Positions 53,367 through 61,043 are shown, counted from the whole stretch's first letter. The stretch is 63,992 nt of DNA, filler included, from Licmophora abbreviata (GCA_900291995.1; 7 parts of 7 records of this genome joined end to end with filler, not necessarily neighbours in it); one strand, 5' to 3'. Translations and numbers: made by a program. Notes: generated by a model not told the origin, from the letters alone.

Positions 53367-55142
53367 ATGATCTCCATTCAAGAGCAACAGGCCGACGAGC
53401 GTCTACACAGGTTTCGGCAGAGACGGGATTCACTAAGACTGCACGCGTCAAGGGTCGCTGCCTTGTCCGGCTTCAATCCATTTGCCAACCTCCCCGAGCT
53501 ATTAATACAGCTGGTGTATCAGGGACCTGTTGGGCAAGAGCTCTTGCGACAGGATGCCAGAGCTCTGGGAATCGTCTTTCAGAGTGAGGAAGCTATGCTA
53601 AGGGAATTGGCAGCCAAGGCCGGCGCCGACACTGCCAAGGCCCTACAGACTGCGTTGGACGTCAAGAAAGGAAAGAAAGTCATGGATACAGTGCGCACGG
53701 CGAGCAAAGTAAAGAAGATGGTGATCGACCAGGCAATGAGGTCAAAGAAACTGAGTGCACAAGAACTCAATGTGCTGCAAGAGGGAGTGAGGAGCTCTGT
53801 CGACACGGGGTACGGGACACACCATGAAGACGAGGCGCTGAACTTATACGAGAAGCAATGCGGGTGGGAGGTTCGGGATCGTAACTCGCAGGTGCTCTCA
53901 TGGCCCTTTGCAAAGGCGGAGGACGTGGACCCCAAGATGGCGGAAGACCAGCCAACAGCGGTCCCACTATCCCGACCAATAGCAGTTTGGACGGATCGGC
54001 ACAACGAAACCTCAACCATTCCGCAGAATTCGTCATCGAAGAAGAACTTGAAGCCTTCTATAGAATCAGACAAAGAAGCTGGTGCGACCATCGACGCGGC
54101 AGAGTCCGAATCGGACAAAGCAAAAATGCTACTACCTTTCTTTTCCATCAGTGGAGCTGTGGATGGCATCCGCGACGAGCTCTGGTGTCCACCATTGTCG
54201 TCCAAGGAAAGCGAGAAAGAGGATGAAGACGATTGGGTGCTTCGATCAATTATTGTGGAATGCAAACATCGCATGAAGAGATCCTTCCGTTCTCCTCCAT
54301 TGTACGACCAAATACAGACGACAGTGTACTGTCTTATGCACGACGTGGATGCCGCCGATCTGATACAAGTCGTTCGCAACGAGAAATGCCGCGAGAAGCG
54401 CAAGCCAAGGAATGACTCCAACGGTGAATCGAGGGGAGAGGAAAATAGGGTACCTTCCAAGAAGAATAAGGCCGCAACCATCGCTACCTCGATTCAAGAT
54501 ACCCTGCCGAACGTTAGACTTGCGGATGAAGGTCGAGATGTCGGCGATGCCTCATGCGCTTCCTCTGCAAAGGACAAGGAAAGCAACACTCGATCCCGCA
54601 ATACCGACCTGGAGTTGCGATCGAACGTCGCTATGACATCACTAGAAGTACAGAACAACGAGATCGACATCACCAAGGCCGTGAACACCGTGGAGAATGC
54701 AGCAGCAGCAGCACCAGCGACACACAGTCGTAACAAAAACCCCTCATCATTACCATCACCAGACTTGGCGAATCAGGATGACAGCGACGATATTACTAAT
54801 TCCGGCGTCATTCATCATCAGCAGCAGCCTACTGTAAACGTTGAGATTGATGTATATCGCGTTGCCATGGACGATCCAGTCATGCAGCATCGACAGAATT
54901 GGCGCACCGTCATTCTTCCTCGACTTCGATCGTTTGTAGACGCAGTGTACAATATCCGACAAGACGATGCAAAGCGCTATTCACTGCTACAAAATAGTAC
55001 ATCGCCGTCCATGGGTGAAGGCACGGATGATTATGACAATGACATGTCGGCCGCTTGGGATTTGTTGCACTCGGAATGTCCGTGGCTCCAAGACTGCGAC
55101 ACTGCGTTTCGACGGCCATCCAATGTACAAGTAATAAAATAG
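53367..55142 (+). CDS. YqaJ/lambda-exonuclease-like PD-(D/E)xK nuclease domain protein
   Basis: LHASRVAALSGFNPF, GYGTHHEDEAL..Y, ISGAVDGI, IIVECKHR, YDQIQTTVYCLM occur in the canonical order. Intronless. First ATG 53367. Confidence 0.78.
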   Translation: MISIQEQQADERLHRFRQRRDSLRLHASRVAALSGFNPFANLPELLIQLVYQGPVGQELLRQDARALGIVFQSEEAMLRELAAKAGADTAKALQTALDVKKGKKVMDTVRTASKVKKMVIDQAMRSKKLSAQELNVLQEGVRSSVDTGYGTHHEDEALNLYEKQCGWEVRDRNSQVLSWPFAKAEDVDPKMAEDQPTAVPLSRPIAVWTDRHNETSTIPQNSSSKKNLKPSIESDKEAGATIDAAESESDKAKMLLPFFSISGAVDGIRDELWCPPLSSKESEKEDEDDWVLRSIIVECKHRMKRSFRSPPLYDQIQTTVYCLMHDVDAADLIQVVRNEKCREKRKPRNDSNGESRGEENRVPSKKNKAATIATSIQDTLPNVRLADEGRDVGDASCASSAKDKESNTRSRNTDLELRSNVAMTSLEVQNNEIDITKAVNTVENAAAAAPATHSRNKNPSSLPSPDLANQDDSDDITNSGVIHHQQQPTVNVEIDVYRVAMDDPVMQHRQNWRTVILPRLRSFVDAVYNIRQDDAKRYSLLQNSTSPSMGEGTDDYDNDMSAAWDLLHSECPWLQDCDTAFRRPSNVQVIK

Positions 55143-55180: not shown

Positions 55181-56012
55181 CTACACCCCTTTTACTAGTT
55201 TCGTAAGGTCCTTCATGGCTGCTCGATGTCCCGTTTTGGTAAGGACAATGACACTGACGCACTGCTGCGTTGGTTCGTCCGACGCAACAGCATCTGTCAT
55301 TACCGAGTAAACGAACTCTGCATGCGACGCCAAGATTTCATCGTCAAAGTACTTGTAGGTTGATGATGTACTTGATTTTCCACCCGGATAGGCGGGTGCC
55401 AGTCGTACAAAGGCACCAAAGTCGAGAGACTTGCGTTCTTCGATCCCACCCTCGGCATTCTCCACCGCCCAATCGATATCGACAATGAGCTGCTGATGCA
55501 AGACTTCGACAAGTTCCAATGGAAGGTTGGCCATGCGGGCGTGAAAGAAGAATCCTGCGGGTCGTGCTGTCTTGCCAGACAAGACCGTTTCCATTTCATT
55601 CACATGTTGCGGTGGGCATTTGGAGAGACATAGGTCCTTTAACGACTGAATGCAAACCTGATTGTCTTGGTTCGTCATATTGAGTACACTTGCAAATCCA
55701 TACACATTGTGGTCTTCATCACCTTCTGTAGAAATGACAGTCCCCACTGAGACGTTGGCAATCATGAGATCCGACAATGCCGACGAATGCGGTGCATATA
55801 CAGAGCTGGTGCTGTGAAGTAGCGTCTTGATGCCATGAAAGAACTTTTCGTTCATGTCGCAAAAGGTAAATTCCACATTGAGAATGTCAGGTTCCTTTGT
55901 AGTGTTGGATGACTTGCGTTTCTTCTTTGTGGTTGATTGCTGTGCGCCTGCACCATTCGTATCGCCGACGTTCTGTCTCTTTTTCTGGTGCTTGTTGTTG
56001 GTGGTGAAATTA
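55181..56012 (-). CDS. BCP1: BCP1/BCCIP family protein (5'-partial)
   Basis: ILNVEFTFCDMNEKFFHGIKTLL, LSDLMI...VGTVISTE, VYGFASVLN, FHARMANLP, YKYFDDEI. Confidence 0.88.
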
Positions 56013-56438: not shown

Positions 56439-57923
56439 ATGAACACTACAATTTTCGTCCATCAGAAGCTACTGTCGTCGTGGTCTGCCTCGCTATCATC
56501 GTCATCACTACTCTTCCGTCCTTGCAGTACTATAAGGACTACGCCAGCGGCTCTTTGGACAGTACCACCACGACAACGCTTCTTATCGTCGTCGCTTCCG
56601 TTCACGGTTTCAAGAACGAGAAACGAAACGAATAGGGCATCGACTTATTCCCAACCCGCCGCACTTTTCTCTGCTCCCCTAGTAATGCAACCAAACATTC
56701 TGGAAACCTGGAACAAACCGACGACAACAACAACAACGAACGACACCGAGCATTCTACTAGTAGCAACAACATGACAGATCATCACACTGACATTGAAGA
56801 GTTGCATCAGATTGCACTCCGACAAGGCTCCACCACCTACGTAGACCCCCAGACGGGCTTTACCGTCTTTACCGAACTTTCTCACTTGAAACGTGGAAAG
56901 TGCTGTGGCAATCGATGCCGTCACTGTCCCTACGGATGGTCAAATGTTCGGAGTAGTAGCAGTGTAGCATCACGACCCCCCATTGTGCAGAGTGGTAACC
57001 TTGTTGCAGTCCAACAGCGTCTGGAGCGATTGTTGCAAATGACGACGACAAACCATCGCCCTTCGAACAGTGATGCTTTTGCAATATCGTCGGGAGTGCA
57101 TCAGTCGCGACCCAATGACGAGTATCCGGAACAACTTGCTACCAACATTGAGTCATCCAAAAGGAGGAACAACTCCACAACAACATCCTCATTCACGACA
57201 CCGCCAATGGGCAAGGGCGGGAGGCATGGTGGTACGCACACGAGTAAGAATGTGCCATATACAAGGGGTGGAGACAAGGGTACAGCACAGCTGTTGACGG
57301 GAGAACGCCGTTCCAAGGATGATTTGGCTTTTGAGGCAATGGGAACGGTCGATGAACTGTGTTCTTTTGTCGGTGTTGTACATGCCGAACTACAATGTGC
57401 TGGTGAGGATAGTACAACGCGGGATTTGCAAGAGTGGTTGTTGGAAATTATGAGTCGATTGTTTGATCTCGGAAGTCATGTGGCCAAGCCGAGGAAGACA
57501 AAGAAGAAGACGGATCAACACGACGACGATGACGACAATGGATTCACTGCAGATGGCGTCGGCGGAGGCTTTCATCAGAATCACATTGACCAATTGGAAG
57601 AGTGGATTGACGACTTGACAGAACAACTGCCCGAACTTACGTCGTTTATACTTCCAACGGGAAGCAAGGCCTCCGCGCAGCTGCACGTTGCACGCACTGT
57701 ATGTCGCCGTGCGGAACGACGCGTCGTGGGGTTGGTCGAAATTCAAGTTTGCGACCCCACCGCCCTACGCTATCTCAATCGACTCTCGGATTTCTTCTTT
57801 GTGGCAGCCCGATGGGCCAACTATTGTCAGGGACGGGATGAAATTCAATATCGACGCGAAACGCGGAGTACCAAACAACGCAATCGGCACACCGTATCTC
57901 TCACGATGGATGACGACGAATAA
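56439..57923 (+). CDS. MMAB: PduO/MMAB-type ATP:cob(I)alamin adenosyltransferase with N-terminal DUF5522 (C1orf53-like) Cys-rich domain
   Basis: [67 protein letters not shown]. Upstream [33 protein letters not shown]. Ser/Arg-rich presequence. One continuous ORF. Confidence 0.92.
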
Positions 57924-57978: not shown

Positions 57979-59766
57979 CTAGGTTGTTAATTGTGTCAGA
58001 CTCTCGAGCATTCGAGTACCTGTGCTATTGTGAATCACCAGCTCTGCATCGGTCGATAGATCCTCCAGTTCGTGAAACCAAAATCCCGCCGCCATCATGG
58101 TGTAGATGCCAATCATAAACATGCCCACCAACCAATTGGTCGTTCCGCCTTGAAGTACTGCAGCAACTGTAATAACACCAAAGAGCAGACATGCCGTCTC
58201 ATATCCCCGAAAGAAGAGTGTCATGGATCGGTCGACGAACATGCCAATTAGCACACACCCCGGCAGAACAAACAATGCAATCTGAATGGCACTGCCCACG
58301 GTGACTCCAACACACAAATCCATTTCATTGCGATATGCAAACAAGATGGCGCTGACTTGTTCTGCAACATTGGAAAAGAATGGTAAAATCACCATGGATG
58401 TAAAGACTTCCGAAATATGCATGCGGTATGCAAAGCCGTCAATTGTGTCGACAAGAATGTCGCTCATGGCCGATATACACAGCGTAATGATGAATAGCCA
58501 GACAATGCCTATGCGAAACGACATTTGCGCTTCTCCTTCGGGCTCGCCATCGAGACTGGTCAAGTCAAAAGTCTCAAGAGCGAGTGCAGCGTCTGACATG
58601 CGTGCCTTGTCGGGACGTCGCAACGGACTGGAGGCGACAGCTGTCGTTGATGCCTCAATGATGTGCTGATGGTCTGCTCCGCCATTGAGTGAGGACGTAG
58701 AACGATGGCCCAAGGAGCCTCTGCGACGATGCGCCACCGCGGTGTGACCATTCGATCCAATCGATGCGTGCGATGACGGCACTCCCCATTCTTCATCCTT
58801 CTTCGCTCGTTCCGTGCTACTCAGACTGCTTTCGTCTTCATCGGCAGAAGGCGGGCGCGCAAAGTTTGACAGTTCAATACTATTGCGTGGAGCCGGCTCG
58901 TAATCCAGTGCTCCCGCTTCTTTACGAAAGAGTCTGATGCAAAATAGATTACGCTTCGTTGTTTGCTTGCTTCGTGAAGCATTCTGTCGCTGCATAGCAT
59001 GAGGTGCCAAGAGCAGCGTGTGTTGTTCCGTCTCGTCGACATCGTCAAACTCTTCCTTGTGTGTTCCAAGTTGAAAGGTGAGATATGCCAAATACAAGAA
59101 CATCATGATGGCAGCATTGACACGACAAAATGCCAGTACATCGGACGATGGCACATTGGGATCGTCCGATTCGTTTCTCAGTTCACCGCTCATGACCAAC
59201 GCCACAGGAAAGAGACATCCCGCCGTCGAAGCGAGCAACATACCCACGGACACGTTGCCACTCGTAATGCGCAATTCTTGCACTTGCCACCTCAATCCAC
59301 CCACTAAACAAGAGACACCAAAGACAAAGAGCAAATTGGTCAACATGCTGCCCAGCATGGCAAGCTGCACGACGCGGTAGAAGCCAGCGCGCAATGCAGC
59401 AGTCGATATGAGTAATTCGGGAGCGTTGCCAAAGGTGGCATTGAGGAGTGCTCCAATCGTGCCATTGGTGTGGGCTGCGACTTGTTCTGTCACGTAGCTT
59501 AAGCGTTCCGCACAGGGAATCAGCGCCAAGCCGCTGCAAGCAAAGCATATGGGCTCTCCGAGCAGGCCTGTGGCATCTCCAATCAACGCCACCGGACCCA
59601 GTACTAGTAGCCACGTCAATTTTGTTTGAAACAAGAGTCCCGTCGACTGGCACAATTCTCGAAGGATCGAGGAGCGAGTACTGGCATCATAAGTAAAGGA
59701 AAGAGGCACCGCAGCAGGCGCGGGAGTCGCGAGAGTGGCGGCGGTCTCCTCTCGCAGCGGCGTCAT
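57979..59766 (-). CDS. CAX: Ca2+(cation)/H+ exchanger, CAX family
   Basis: GALLNATFGNAPEL, MLGSMLTNLL, YLTFQLGTH, ILPFFSNVAEQ, GSAIQIALFVLP, GGTTNWLVG. First ATG 59766. Confidence 0.92.
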   Translation of the reverse strand: MTPLREETAATLATPAPAAVPLSFTYDASTRSSILRELCQSTGLLFQTKLTWLLVLGPVALIGDATGLLGEPICFACSGLALIPCAERLSYVTEQVAAHTNGTIGALLNATFGNAPELLISTAALRAGFYRVVQLAMLGSMLTNLLFVFGVSCLVGGLRWQVQELRITSGNVSVGMLLASTAGCLFPVALVMSGELRNESDDPNVPSSDVLAFCRVNAAIMMFLYLAYLTFQLGTHKEEFDDVDETEQHTLLLAPHAMQRQNASRSKQTTKRNLFCIRLFRKEAGALDYEPAPRNSIELSNFARPPSADEDESSLSSTERAKKDEEWGVPSSHASIGSNGHTAVAHRRRGSLGHRSTSSLNGGADHQHIIEASTTAVASSPLRRPDKARMSDAALALETFDLTSLDGEPEGEAQMSFRIGIVWLFIITLCISAMSDILVDTIDGFAYRMHISEVFTSMVILPFFSNVAEQVSAILFAYRNEMDLCVGVTVGSAIQIALFVLPGCVLIGMFVDRSMTLFFRGYETACLLFGVITVAAVLQGGTTNWLVGMFMIGIYTMMAAGFWFHELEDLSTDAELVIHNSTGTRMLESLTQLTT

Positions 59767-60437: not shown

Positions 60438-61043
60438 ATGCCTCCCAAGATTGCCATCATCCAGTACTCTCTGTACGGACACGTCACGGCTCTGTCACGT
60501 GCCGTGGCAAAGGGCGTGGAAGCCACTGGCGCCTCGGTCGACATCTACCAAGTGCCCGAAACTCTACCCGAAGAAGTCCTCACCAAGATGCATGCCCCCG
60601 AGAAGCCTGACTTTCCCATCATGGAACCCTCCAAAATGGAAGACTACGATGGATTCATCTTTGGTTTGAGTGGGCGCTTCGGAACCTTCCCTGCCCAGAT
60701 GAAGGCCTTCATGGACTCGACGGGCGGACTTTGGCAAAGCGGGGCCCTCGTGGGCAAGGCGGCTGGCACCTTCACGTCGGTCGGCACCATGGGAGGTGGA
60801 CAGGAAACGGTCAACCTGAGTGCCATTCCCTACTTTACGCACATGGGCATGGTCTTTGTGCCGCTTGGATACGTGGAACCCAAGGTCTTTGCCCTCGACC
60901 AGGTGCACGGCGCTTCGCCGTACGGAGCGGGCACGTTCGCTGGTCCGGATGGAAGTCGAACGCCCACGGAATTGGAACTTGAAATTGCCGAGTCGCATGG
61001 CAAACACTTTGCCGGTATCACGGCCAAGCTTGCCGCCGAGTAG
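60438..61043 (+). CDS. wrbA: WrbA/Pst2-type flavodoxin-like NAD(P)H:quinone oxidoreductase
   Basis: IIQYSLYGHV, YQVPETL, RFGTFPAQMKAFMDSTGGLW..GALVGK, GGGQET, HGASPYGAGTFAG.DGSR. Confidence 0.93.
   Translation: MPPKIAIIQYSLYGHVTALSRAVAKGVEATGASVDIYQVPETLPEEVLTKMHAPEKPDFPIMEPSKMEDYDGFIFGLSGRFGTFPAQMKAFMDSTGGLWQSGALVGKAAGTFTSVGTMGGGQETVNLSAIPYFTHMGMVFVPLGYVEPKVFALDQVHGASPYGAGTFAGPDGSRTPTELELEIAESHGKHFAGITAKLAAE

Follow-up and report, generated by a model that had tools for sequence, protein, structure and literature searches.

A gene of the diatom Licmophora abbreviata (GCA_900291995.1), located in a 63,992-nucleotide stretch of DNA (the window), encodes a small cysteine-rich domain of the DUF5522 family (PF17653) fused to an ATP:cob(I)alamin adenosyltransferase of the PduO/MMAB type (CblB). 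The fusion is conserved among diatoms, its catalytic motifs are intact, and DUF5522 is repeatedly associated with vitamin B12 functions in bacteria and phages; it is very likely that the family as a whole has a B12-related role. Our full account, in which a mitochondrial MMAB carries a tethered DUF5522 metal module that aids cobamide handling, most likely through redox chemistry, has in our estimate a probability of about 0.5. The gene comprises the following features.

56439..57923, + strand (contig G000:C3067): fused open reading frame (ORF) of 494 amino acids (aa), i.e., presequence, DUF5522 domain, helix, disordered linker and PduO/MMAB (CblB) domain
56790..56945, + strand: DUF5522 domain, aa 118-169, helix - beta hairpin - helix - Cys loop (Pfam; AlphaFold2)
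56901..56927, + strand: C155-C156-x3-C160-x-H162-C163, presumed metal or iron-sulfur (Fe-S) ligands (conservation)
57258..57851, + strand: PduO-type ATP:cob(I)alamin adenosyltransferase domain, aa 274-471, including NRLSD (Pfam, NCBIfam, PDB match, fold)
56439..56624, + strand: probable mitochondrial presequence, aa 1-62, Ser/Thr/Arg-rich with no acidic residue (composition)
56772..56774, + strand: second in-frame ATG, Met112, shortly ahead of DUF5522 (sequence; conserved Met in relatives)
56976..57050, + strand: conserved S-G-D and helix element after DUF5522, aa ~180-204 (alignment; AlphaFold2 confidence, pLDDT; loose motif)
57063..57245, + strand: variable linker, predicted disordered, aa 209-269 (pLDDT <50)

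The frame at 56439-57923 is open over 494 codons, intron-less and without interruption; it starts 326 bases past an assembly gap, and its neighbors are a BCCIP gene in divergent and a Ca/cation exchanger gene in convergent orientation. The original prediction, made from the sequence alone, that one ORF joins a Cys domain and an adenosyltransferase was borne out, and Pfam analysis of the protein yielded exactly two families, both far above their cut-offs, i.e., DUF5522 (aa 123-169; E 5e-24; 84.5 bits versus a cut-off of 25; profile positions 2-48 of 48) and Cob_adeno_trans (PF01923; aa 274-460; E 5e-56; 189.9 bits versus a cut-off of 24; profile positions 2-171 of 171). The adenosyltransferase domain was also recognized by NCBIfam TIGR00636 (PduO_Nterm; 163.2 bits versus a cut-off of 108.45) and carries the N-terminal ATP-binding motif T(K/R)xGDxG as well as RRAERR and NRLSD; the MMAB motifs are kept in 116-120 of 121 fused sequences. 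Its closest match among solved structures is human MMAB/CblB (PDB 2idx, 6d5k, 6d5x, 7rut and 7ruv; E 2e-37; 40-42% identity), and R423 and E426 of the diatom protein align with human R190 and E193, i.e., the sites mutated in the R190C and E193K structures 7rut and 7ruv. In the predicted fold (AlphaFold2), helices 296-463 form a five-helix bundle for which Foldseek returned only PduO-type structures, with human ATR as the top matches (target-normalized TM score of 0.84-0.88 over ranks 1-10). Like human MMAB, the diatom protein has the catalytic motifs, a probable presequence and a mutase encoded in the genome; unlike human MMAB, it adds the N-terminal DUF5522 domain and helix, a disordered linker of ~60 aa and an acidic loop insertion, and none of the 37 PDB sequence matches of the fusion protein covered the DUF5522 region. 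From the intact motifs and the presence of a gene for methylmalonyl-CoA mutase (MMUT) in the genome, the fusion protein would be expected to adenosylate cobalamin and deliver it to MMUT.

The fusion is not confined to this assembly, a restriction that the original prediction had considered as a point on which it might fail. When aa 112-172 were searched against proteins of 271-865 aa, 125 matches were obtained, and both Pfam families were present in all 120 relatives listed; this word-seeded search favors close relatives and is no census. Named fused relatives (Thalassiosira, Skeletonema, Cyclotella (2), Stephanodiscus, Cylindrotheca, Epithemia and one 'Fragi...') are all diatoms, and four fused relatives are MMETSP transcripts labelled complete. 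As all 120 listed relatives have the same architecture, the fusion is not a chance frame. One could suppose that two neighboring genes were read through in the assembly, and among the few pieces examined there was indeed no bridging RNA from L. abbreviata; three sequencing runs presumed to be RNA gave four short contig pieces (all from one run), none of which lay over either domain, an uninformative result. The single intron-less ORF and the fused relatives, complete transcripts among them, speak against this, and we consider such an annotation artefact to be extremely improbable.

Further fused sequences were found in the ESM Atlas, where a 93-member cluster has both families in 100% of its members, with Bacillariophyta as the commonest phylum (phylum known for 31 members), and where a second fused cluster has 68 members of ~293 aa, only 4 of its taxa being known. 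A quick tree was built from 35 fused MMAB domains together with 2 bacterial PduOs; in it, the fusion from the window grouped with those of centric and pennate diatoms (SH-aLRT 92), while five divergent fused forms (P0002, P0196, P0242, P0233 and P0266) fell outside the diatom group. Separately, we observed that Nucleocytoviricota are among the 4 known taxa of the ~293-aa cluster (rank 2), and that contigs of giant-virus type (L151, L153-L155) bear stand-alone DUF5522; a viral scan with P0233 as query found no viral DUF5522-adenosyltransferase fusion. Some proteins (P0002, P0128, P0129, P0130 and P0133) have two copies of DUF5522; two of these are fused to MMAB, and three have no further family above cut-off and end in a conserved W-D-W tail.

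The DUF5522 domain appears to fold independently as a unit of ~50 residues, as its AlphaFold2 model by itself reached a pLDDT of 92.6. Fold searches against the PDB gave nothing clear (best Foldseek E 1.8), and with VIA-align the best Z was 2.3 (rmsd 4.3, 43 residues aligned), for what is a very small domain; no clear likeness to small Fe-S or zinc carriers such as ferredoxin, rubredoxin or the zinc ribbon emerged. No variation was seen at C155, C156, C160, H162, C163, Y134 and G140 among 82 sequences from eukaryotes and bacteria, H123 (89%) and H149 (82%) are also conserved, and the four-Cys motif is kept in 120 of 121 fused sequences. Four thiols within nine residues are a sign of a metal site, and we presume from the sequence that the Cys motif is a putative metal site, which would fit zinc as well as an Fe-S cluster. 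The spacing C156-x3-C160-x2-C163 is that of the radical-SAM motif CxxxCxxC, and the sole PDB profile match (4wcx; E 0.065) was not significant. Unlike radical SAM enzymes, DUF5522 has no partial TIM barrel after the motif and is ~50 aa long, often the whole protein; it is thus not a member of that superfamily, and the likeness is one of motif only. A complex prediction of DUF5522 plus helix against the MMAB trimer, run without alignments, scored 0.02 and is used neither for nor against any reading.

The assembly of L. abbreviata is fragmented (7,734 contigs). PF17653 has two matches in it, i.e., the fusion and the following second gene.

G000:C4242:302-2215 (locus L002), - strand: second DUF5522 gene, encoding Peripla_BP_2 (BtuF-like), DUF5522 and PF01902 (Pfam)

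The DUF71-B12 subgroup of DUF71/COG2102 comprises predicted B12-salvage PP-loop ATPases clustered with btuCDF; it is defined by ENGEFH, and 75 of 102 of its genes adjoin B12 transporter genes (de Crecy-Lagard et al. 2012, PMC3541065). The passages of that paper on the subgroup do not mention a Cys-rich partner domain. As the second gene has the ENGEFH signature, its PF01902 part is of the DUF71-B12 type; canonical DPH6 is encoded by a separate gene of the assembly, and the second gene has no obvious signal peptide. Its partners are thus of the B12 type. In the fusion protein from the window, which lacks a DUF71 domain, the partner is MMAB, so that each of the two DUF5522 copies in the genome is joined to domains of B12 type. 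The assembly also contains an MMUT gene of eukaryotic type (intron-split, ~52% GC, with a presequence-like start) and split matches to the MeaB/MMAA family on adjacent contigs (profile matches only). PF01923 likewise has two matches, one of which is the fusion while the other lies on a contig of 64% GC with bacterial operon structure; apart from the fusion, no MMAB of eukaryotic type was found in this fragmented assembly.

We also investigated the contexts of DUF5522 outside diatoms. A profile search gave 3,785 DUF5522 clusters (at 50% identity). Among the best 150 representatives, a list that leans towards query-like sequences and in which some short entries are pieces of fusions, 56 have a partner (MMAB in 29, BtuF-like plus DUF71 in 16, DUF71 in 10 and BtuF-like in 1), while 81 short and 13 long proteins have neither MMAB nor BtuF-like nor DUF71 domains. 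Pfam analysis of 64 longer DUF5522 proteins found no recurrent partner beyond these three. Word-index searches with the short domain gave 5 proteins and 1 protein; one was from Clydaea, a single point that fits the use of B12 in early-branching fungi reported in PMC8085122. A scan of GTDB gave at least 574 matches, and 80 loci were examined; a DUF71-like domain was present in 22 of these (in the same ORF as DUF5522 in 19) and a BtuF-like domain in 5.

Of 61 bacterial DUF5522 loci scanned with Rfam, 6 had a cobalamin riboswitch that lay upstream in the same orientation (3/13, 0/16, 3/19 and 0/13 in four batches); the other 19 of the 80 loci come mostly from Erythrobacter, Longimicrobiales and Burkholderiales and nearly duplicate clades that were scanned. 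Based on 60 riboswitches in ~220 Mb (fifty of these genomes; a lower bound), the 571 kb scanned would be expected to contain ~0.16. The riboswitch loci are from Planctomycetota and of Betaproteobacteria type, i.e., three Planctomycetota loci with the order riboswitch, DUF71, DUF6580, BtuF-like/DUF5522, two loci (L045 and L018) with riboswitch, TonB receptor, DUF5522/DUF71, and one (L063) with riboswitch, TonB receptor, DUF5522. Seven Bacteroidota genomes (L143-L149) have a second DUF5522 copy with a CWC-like N-terminus (PF14375, below cut-off), and all seven of these copies, which probably represent one clade, lie between btuDCF-like genes and cobU/bluB-cobT, two with a DUF71 gene inserted. 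Their clusters have the order btuDCF, cobU, (DUF71), bluB/cobT, cobS, and three of them adjoin a cobalamin riboswitch. In a Kapabacteria-like clade (seven loci), a TonB receptor gene, a DUF5522 fusion and a DUF5074 gene are adjacent, with no riboswitch detected, and an annotated Chondrinema record shows the order TonB, DUF5074, DUF5522. DUF5522 and PduO also co-occur in Bacteroidota; of 251 evenly sampled genomes, 59 carry DUF5522 above cut-off and 197 carry PduO, which was present in 59 of 59 DUF5522-positive and 138 of 192 DUF5522-negative genomes (Fisher 9e-8).

At L036:5622-6683 as well as L016, L032, L038, L039, L050 and L064, the reading frame of DUF5522 also covers a segment resembling a signal peptide and a domain of secreted type; this frame lies between a btuB-like receptor gene and a DUF5074 gene and may represent a true fusion or a conserved internal start. 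A DUF6580 membrane protein recurs beside DUF5522 (L066, L084, L091, L068 and L077), in Planctomycetota behind a riboswitch and together with DUF71 and a BtuF-like domain, and in two other cases divergent from a DUF5074-like gene; judging from this gene order, DUF6580 is a candidate component of a B12 transporter.

The cleanest test of the link between DUF5522 and B12 is provided by phages. A scan of viral contigs (IMG/VR) gave at least 590 matches; among the best 80 loci, 72 have a gene for a monomeric class II ribonucleotide reductase (RNR) upstream of DUF5522 and in the same orientation, and in 55 of them the two are within 400 nt of each other. Clustering of these RNRs gave 29 groups at 90% and 7 at 75% identity; the enzymes have the B12-dependent insertion domain but no small subunit. 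To avoid circularity, 80 phage loci were then picked by the neighboring helicase alone, and the 40 with a classifiable RNR and at least 300 nt downstream were kept (10 class II, 6 class I and 24 other loci were dropped, including one DUF5522-positive class II locus with <300 nt downstream). DUF5522 was present in 11 of 16 loci with class II RNR and in none of 24 with class I nrdB and nrdA (P = 1.9e-6; Fisher's exact test); counted by 90% helicase clusters, the numbers were 9 of 13 versus 0 of 18. A quick helicase tree required at least six changes of RNR class, all forced by well-supported branches, and contained sister pairs that differ in RNR class and DUF5522 together. The swapping phages (L152, L157-L230, L236-L315) are AT-rich and aquatic, with the RNR slot after the helicase gene, and thioredoxin and queuosine-pathway genes (folE, queC, queD-like) often come next. 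DUF5522 is not a split-off Cys tail of the RNR, as all 8 RTPRs inspected retain a C-terminal Cys pair of their own, whether DUF5522 is present or not.

Since riboswitch-led operons, cobamide salvage clusters, the second B12-type fusion and co-travel with phage class II RNR are all independent of the MMAB fusion, they support the family-wide B12 role that the original prediction had proposed. What the partners would share is an intracellular cobamide that they take up, remodel, adenosylate or keep active.

A number of findings weigh against this reading. PduO was found in none of the 80 GTDB loci examined (with the diatom domain as query), so that DUF5522 as a dedicated operon partner of PduO in bacteria is unsupported, and the only DUF5522-pduO adjacency seen elsewhere is tail-to-tail (L142, Bacteroidota). 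No riboswitch was detected in 55 of the 61 loci scanned, and the top NCBIfam match of the TonB receptors, a B12 receptor, was below cut-off. The co-occurrence with PduO in Bacteroidota is confounded by kinship and genome size. DUF5522 is patchy, being present in 18 of 201 Actinomycetota and 59 of 251 Bacteroidota genomes and in none of 14 control genomes, although PduO is present in 9 of these; as PduO thus occurs without it, DUF5522 must be dispensable for adenosylation. Most stand-alone bacterial copies, including most of the 80 GTDB loci and the typical single copy of Bacteroidota and Actinomycetota, have non-B12 neighbors (a trmB-like methyltransferase, urocanase, IMPDH, malic enzyme and peptidases). 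In the phages, the top RNR family, adenosylcobalamin-dependent RTPR, scored 282 bits against a cut-off of 340, DUF5522 was missing from 5 of 16 class II loci, the loci represent one related group of which only the local neighborhood was considered, and a gene this small could simply travel along with an RTPR cassette.

These points could be accommodated if DUF5522 were a general small metal-binding protein without B12 specificity, recruited at the level of clades, hitch-hiking elsewhere and a passenger in the diatom protein; that most bacterial stand-alone copies are orphans, that other contexts exist (speD/porin in Persicobacter; purF/yitJ) and that MMAB functions without DUF5522 in most organisms would all be consistent with it. 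Such a protein would hardly be expected in at least six unrelated B12 contexts and without any recurrent non-B12 fusion partner among the 64 longer proteins, nor would it explain why the Cys and His residues are invariant in fused copies although the linker varies freely. We therefore consider it improbable, and favor a B12-related role.

The N-terminus of the fusion protein has the composition of a probable mitochondrial presequence. Its first 35 residues include 14 Ser/Thr, 3 Arg/Lys and no Asp/Glu, the earliest acidic residue being 63; the same composition rule holds for 48 of 60 relatives with extensions of at least 50 aa, as compared to 5 of 110 linker control windows. A Met within 30 aa upstream of DUF5522 occurs in 49 of 60 relatives with long N-termini, as compared to 15 of 60 for the preceding 30 aa and 28 of 110 linker windows; Met112 could possibly serve as an alternative start that yields a second, presequence-less isoform and hence dual targeting. 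The AlphaFold2 model (from a 24-sequence alignment) shows two confident regions (aa ~118-204 and ~281-488) with a disordered stretch between them, and the spacing from DUF5522 to MMAB ranges from 40 to 221 aa (median 100; n = 119). The region had been described as a low-complexity linker of about 100 aa; this description fits only aa ~209-269, which are predicted to be disordered, and not the S-G-D/helix element (helix 188-204 has pLDDT >90; the loose motif is found in 107 of 121 sequences) or KNVPYT, which is conserved just ahead of the catalytic domain in 118 of 121 sequences.

In the mechanism that we propose, the gene in the window would encode the diatom mitochondrial MMAB/CblB, which would adenosylate cobalamin and load methylmalonyl-CoA mutase. 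DUF5522 would bind a metal centre through C-C-x3-C-x-H-C and assist proteins that handle cobamides in the cytoplasm or matrix; it is joined to MMAB in diatoms, joined to BtuF-like and DUF71-B12 domains in other proteins, and would otherwise be supplied in trans from B12 uptake and salvage operons and from beside the adenosylcobalamin-dependent RNR of phages. It may act as a one-electron carrier, with an Fe-S or redox-active metal-thiolate centre, that reduces cob(III/II)alamin and so lets adenosylcobalamin be made or repaired; the flexible linker would let it reach the active sites of the MMAB trimer. Adenosylation needs Co(I) and, to our knowledge, the physiological electron donor for mitochondrial MMAB is not settled. 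Electron transfer is slightly favored because of this need for Co(I), the Cys spacing shared with radical-SAM [4Fe-4S] sites, the suitability of a tethered carrier for a trimer with inter-subunit sites, and the recurrence of thioredoxin genes in the phages (21 of the best 80 loci); as a specific role for DUF5522 it remains tentative, its chances being somewhat short of even.

Nearly as plausible is a zinc-stabilized cobamide carrier or chaperone, in which the four Cys would hold a structural Zn and move no electrons, while a surface formed by His123, His149, His162, Tyr134 and Phe144 would bind cobalamin transiently and pass it from uptake proteins to MMAB, DUF71 or RNR. Hand-off would simply explain the links to uptake (btuB-like, BtuF-like, DUF5074, DUF6580), remodelling (DUF71-B12, CobU, CobT), activation (MMAB) and use (RTPR), and the conserved His and aromatic residues outside the Cys motif are consistent with it. 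On the other hand, ~50 aa would seem small for a corrin-binding pocket, and there is no fold likeness to solved B12 binders (a weak comparison at such size). MMAB, moreover, already escorts the cofactor to the mutase, with removal of damaged cofactor, according to passages of PMC11672702 that describe how it makes adenosylcobalamin and delivers it. Overall, we regard the carrier as a distinct possibility, although less likely than not. A redox or metal sensor, whose Cys cluster would gate the activity or stability of the fused enzyme by oxygen, thiol or metal status, is much less likely; the adjacent Cys-Cys and the flexible tether could suit a switch, and DUF5522 is optional across lineages, but a sensor poorly explains why a free 60-aa gene stays beside class II RNR in phages and is given up where class I is present.

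The proposed pairing would have precedents. Accessory parts of adenosyltransferases include the corrin reductase PduS and the C-terminal haem-binding domain of PduO, both of Salmonella, and the Cys-Cys metal site of EutT. These systems pair an adenosyltransferase with a redox or metal module as the diatom protein may do; DUF5522 differs from them in its much smaller size and in the absence of a flavin domain, and no sequence similarity to them was detected in the Pfam, NCBIfam and PDB searches. The diatom domain matches the PF17653 profile over its full length; other members of the family, such as the small bacterial and phage proteins, are usually stand-alone.

DUF5522/PF17653 has no function or structure on record, and our literature search, which covered few subscription journals, gave no paper naming DUF5522 and no description of the MMAB fusion, the phage RNR link or DUF6580. 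The human protein C1orf53 is presumably a member of the DUF5522 family, and no functional title was found for it among the papers listed. A passage of PMC10298883 lists C1orf53 as transcript-level only, and a table of PMC3237598 labels a diatom ABC-class protein 'Uncharacterized protein C1orf53'. The word 'fusion' is absent from the CblB passages of two algal B12 surveys (10.1101/2023.06.07.544158 and PMC6557843), although the supplements of the former list Pfam domains and might show the architecture, which is already visible in automatic databases (ESM Atlas).

The genes next to the fusion in the window are unrelated to it and were rejected as functional partners. BCCIP (55181-55855, -) has its start side inside the N gap, and the Ca/cation exchanger gene (57979-59766, -) ends 55 bases from the stop codon of the fusion; a WrbA-like flavodoxin (60438-61043, +) and a 591-aa ORF without Pfam match (53367-55142, +) are also present. 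Elsewhere in the assembly, what looked like a second MMAB, along with two matches to the mutase family and one to RNR, was attributed to bacterial contamination and set aside; contigs C4737, C4960 and C3812 have a GC content of 62-65% and bacterial gene content, and we take contig G000:C1894 to be bacterial from its sequence. B12 gene inventories drawn from this assembly thus need filtering for bacterial contigs.

The diatom fusion is a real, lineage-wide variant of a known enzyme, and its link to B12 through DUF5522 is well supported. These data provide a function-level hypothesis for a family without literature that comprises 3,785 clusters at 50% identity, and the fusion offers an existing construct with which to ask whether DUF5522 supplies the electrons for Co(I). 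They also bear on the B12 economy of diatoms and aquatic phages, for B12 is a limiting micronutrient. A bolder and rather doubtful extension is that the DUF5522/C1orf53 proteins are very small Fe-S enzymes that reduce or repair cobalamin and form a widespread, so far unrecognized family, built into MMAB in diatoms, supporting RNR supply in phages and acting as a stand-alone, presequence-bearing protein in animals; if this were true, human C1orf53 would be a candidate both for a component missing from the B12 pathway of mitochondria and for the gene behind unexplained cases of methylmalonic aciduria.
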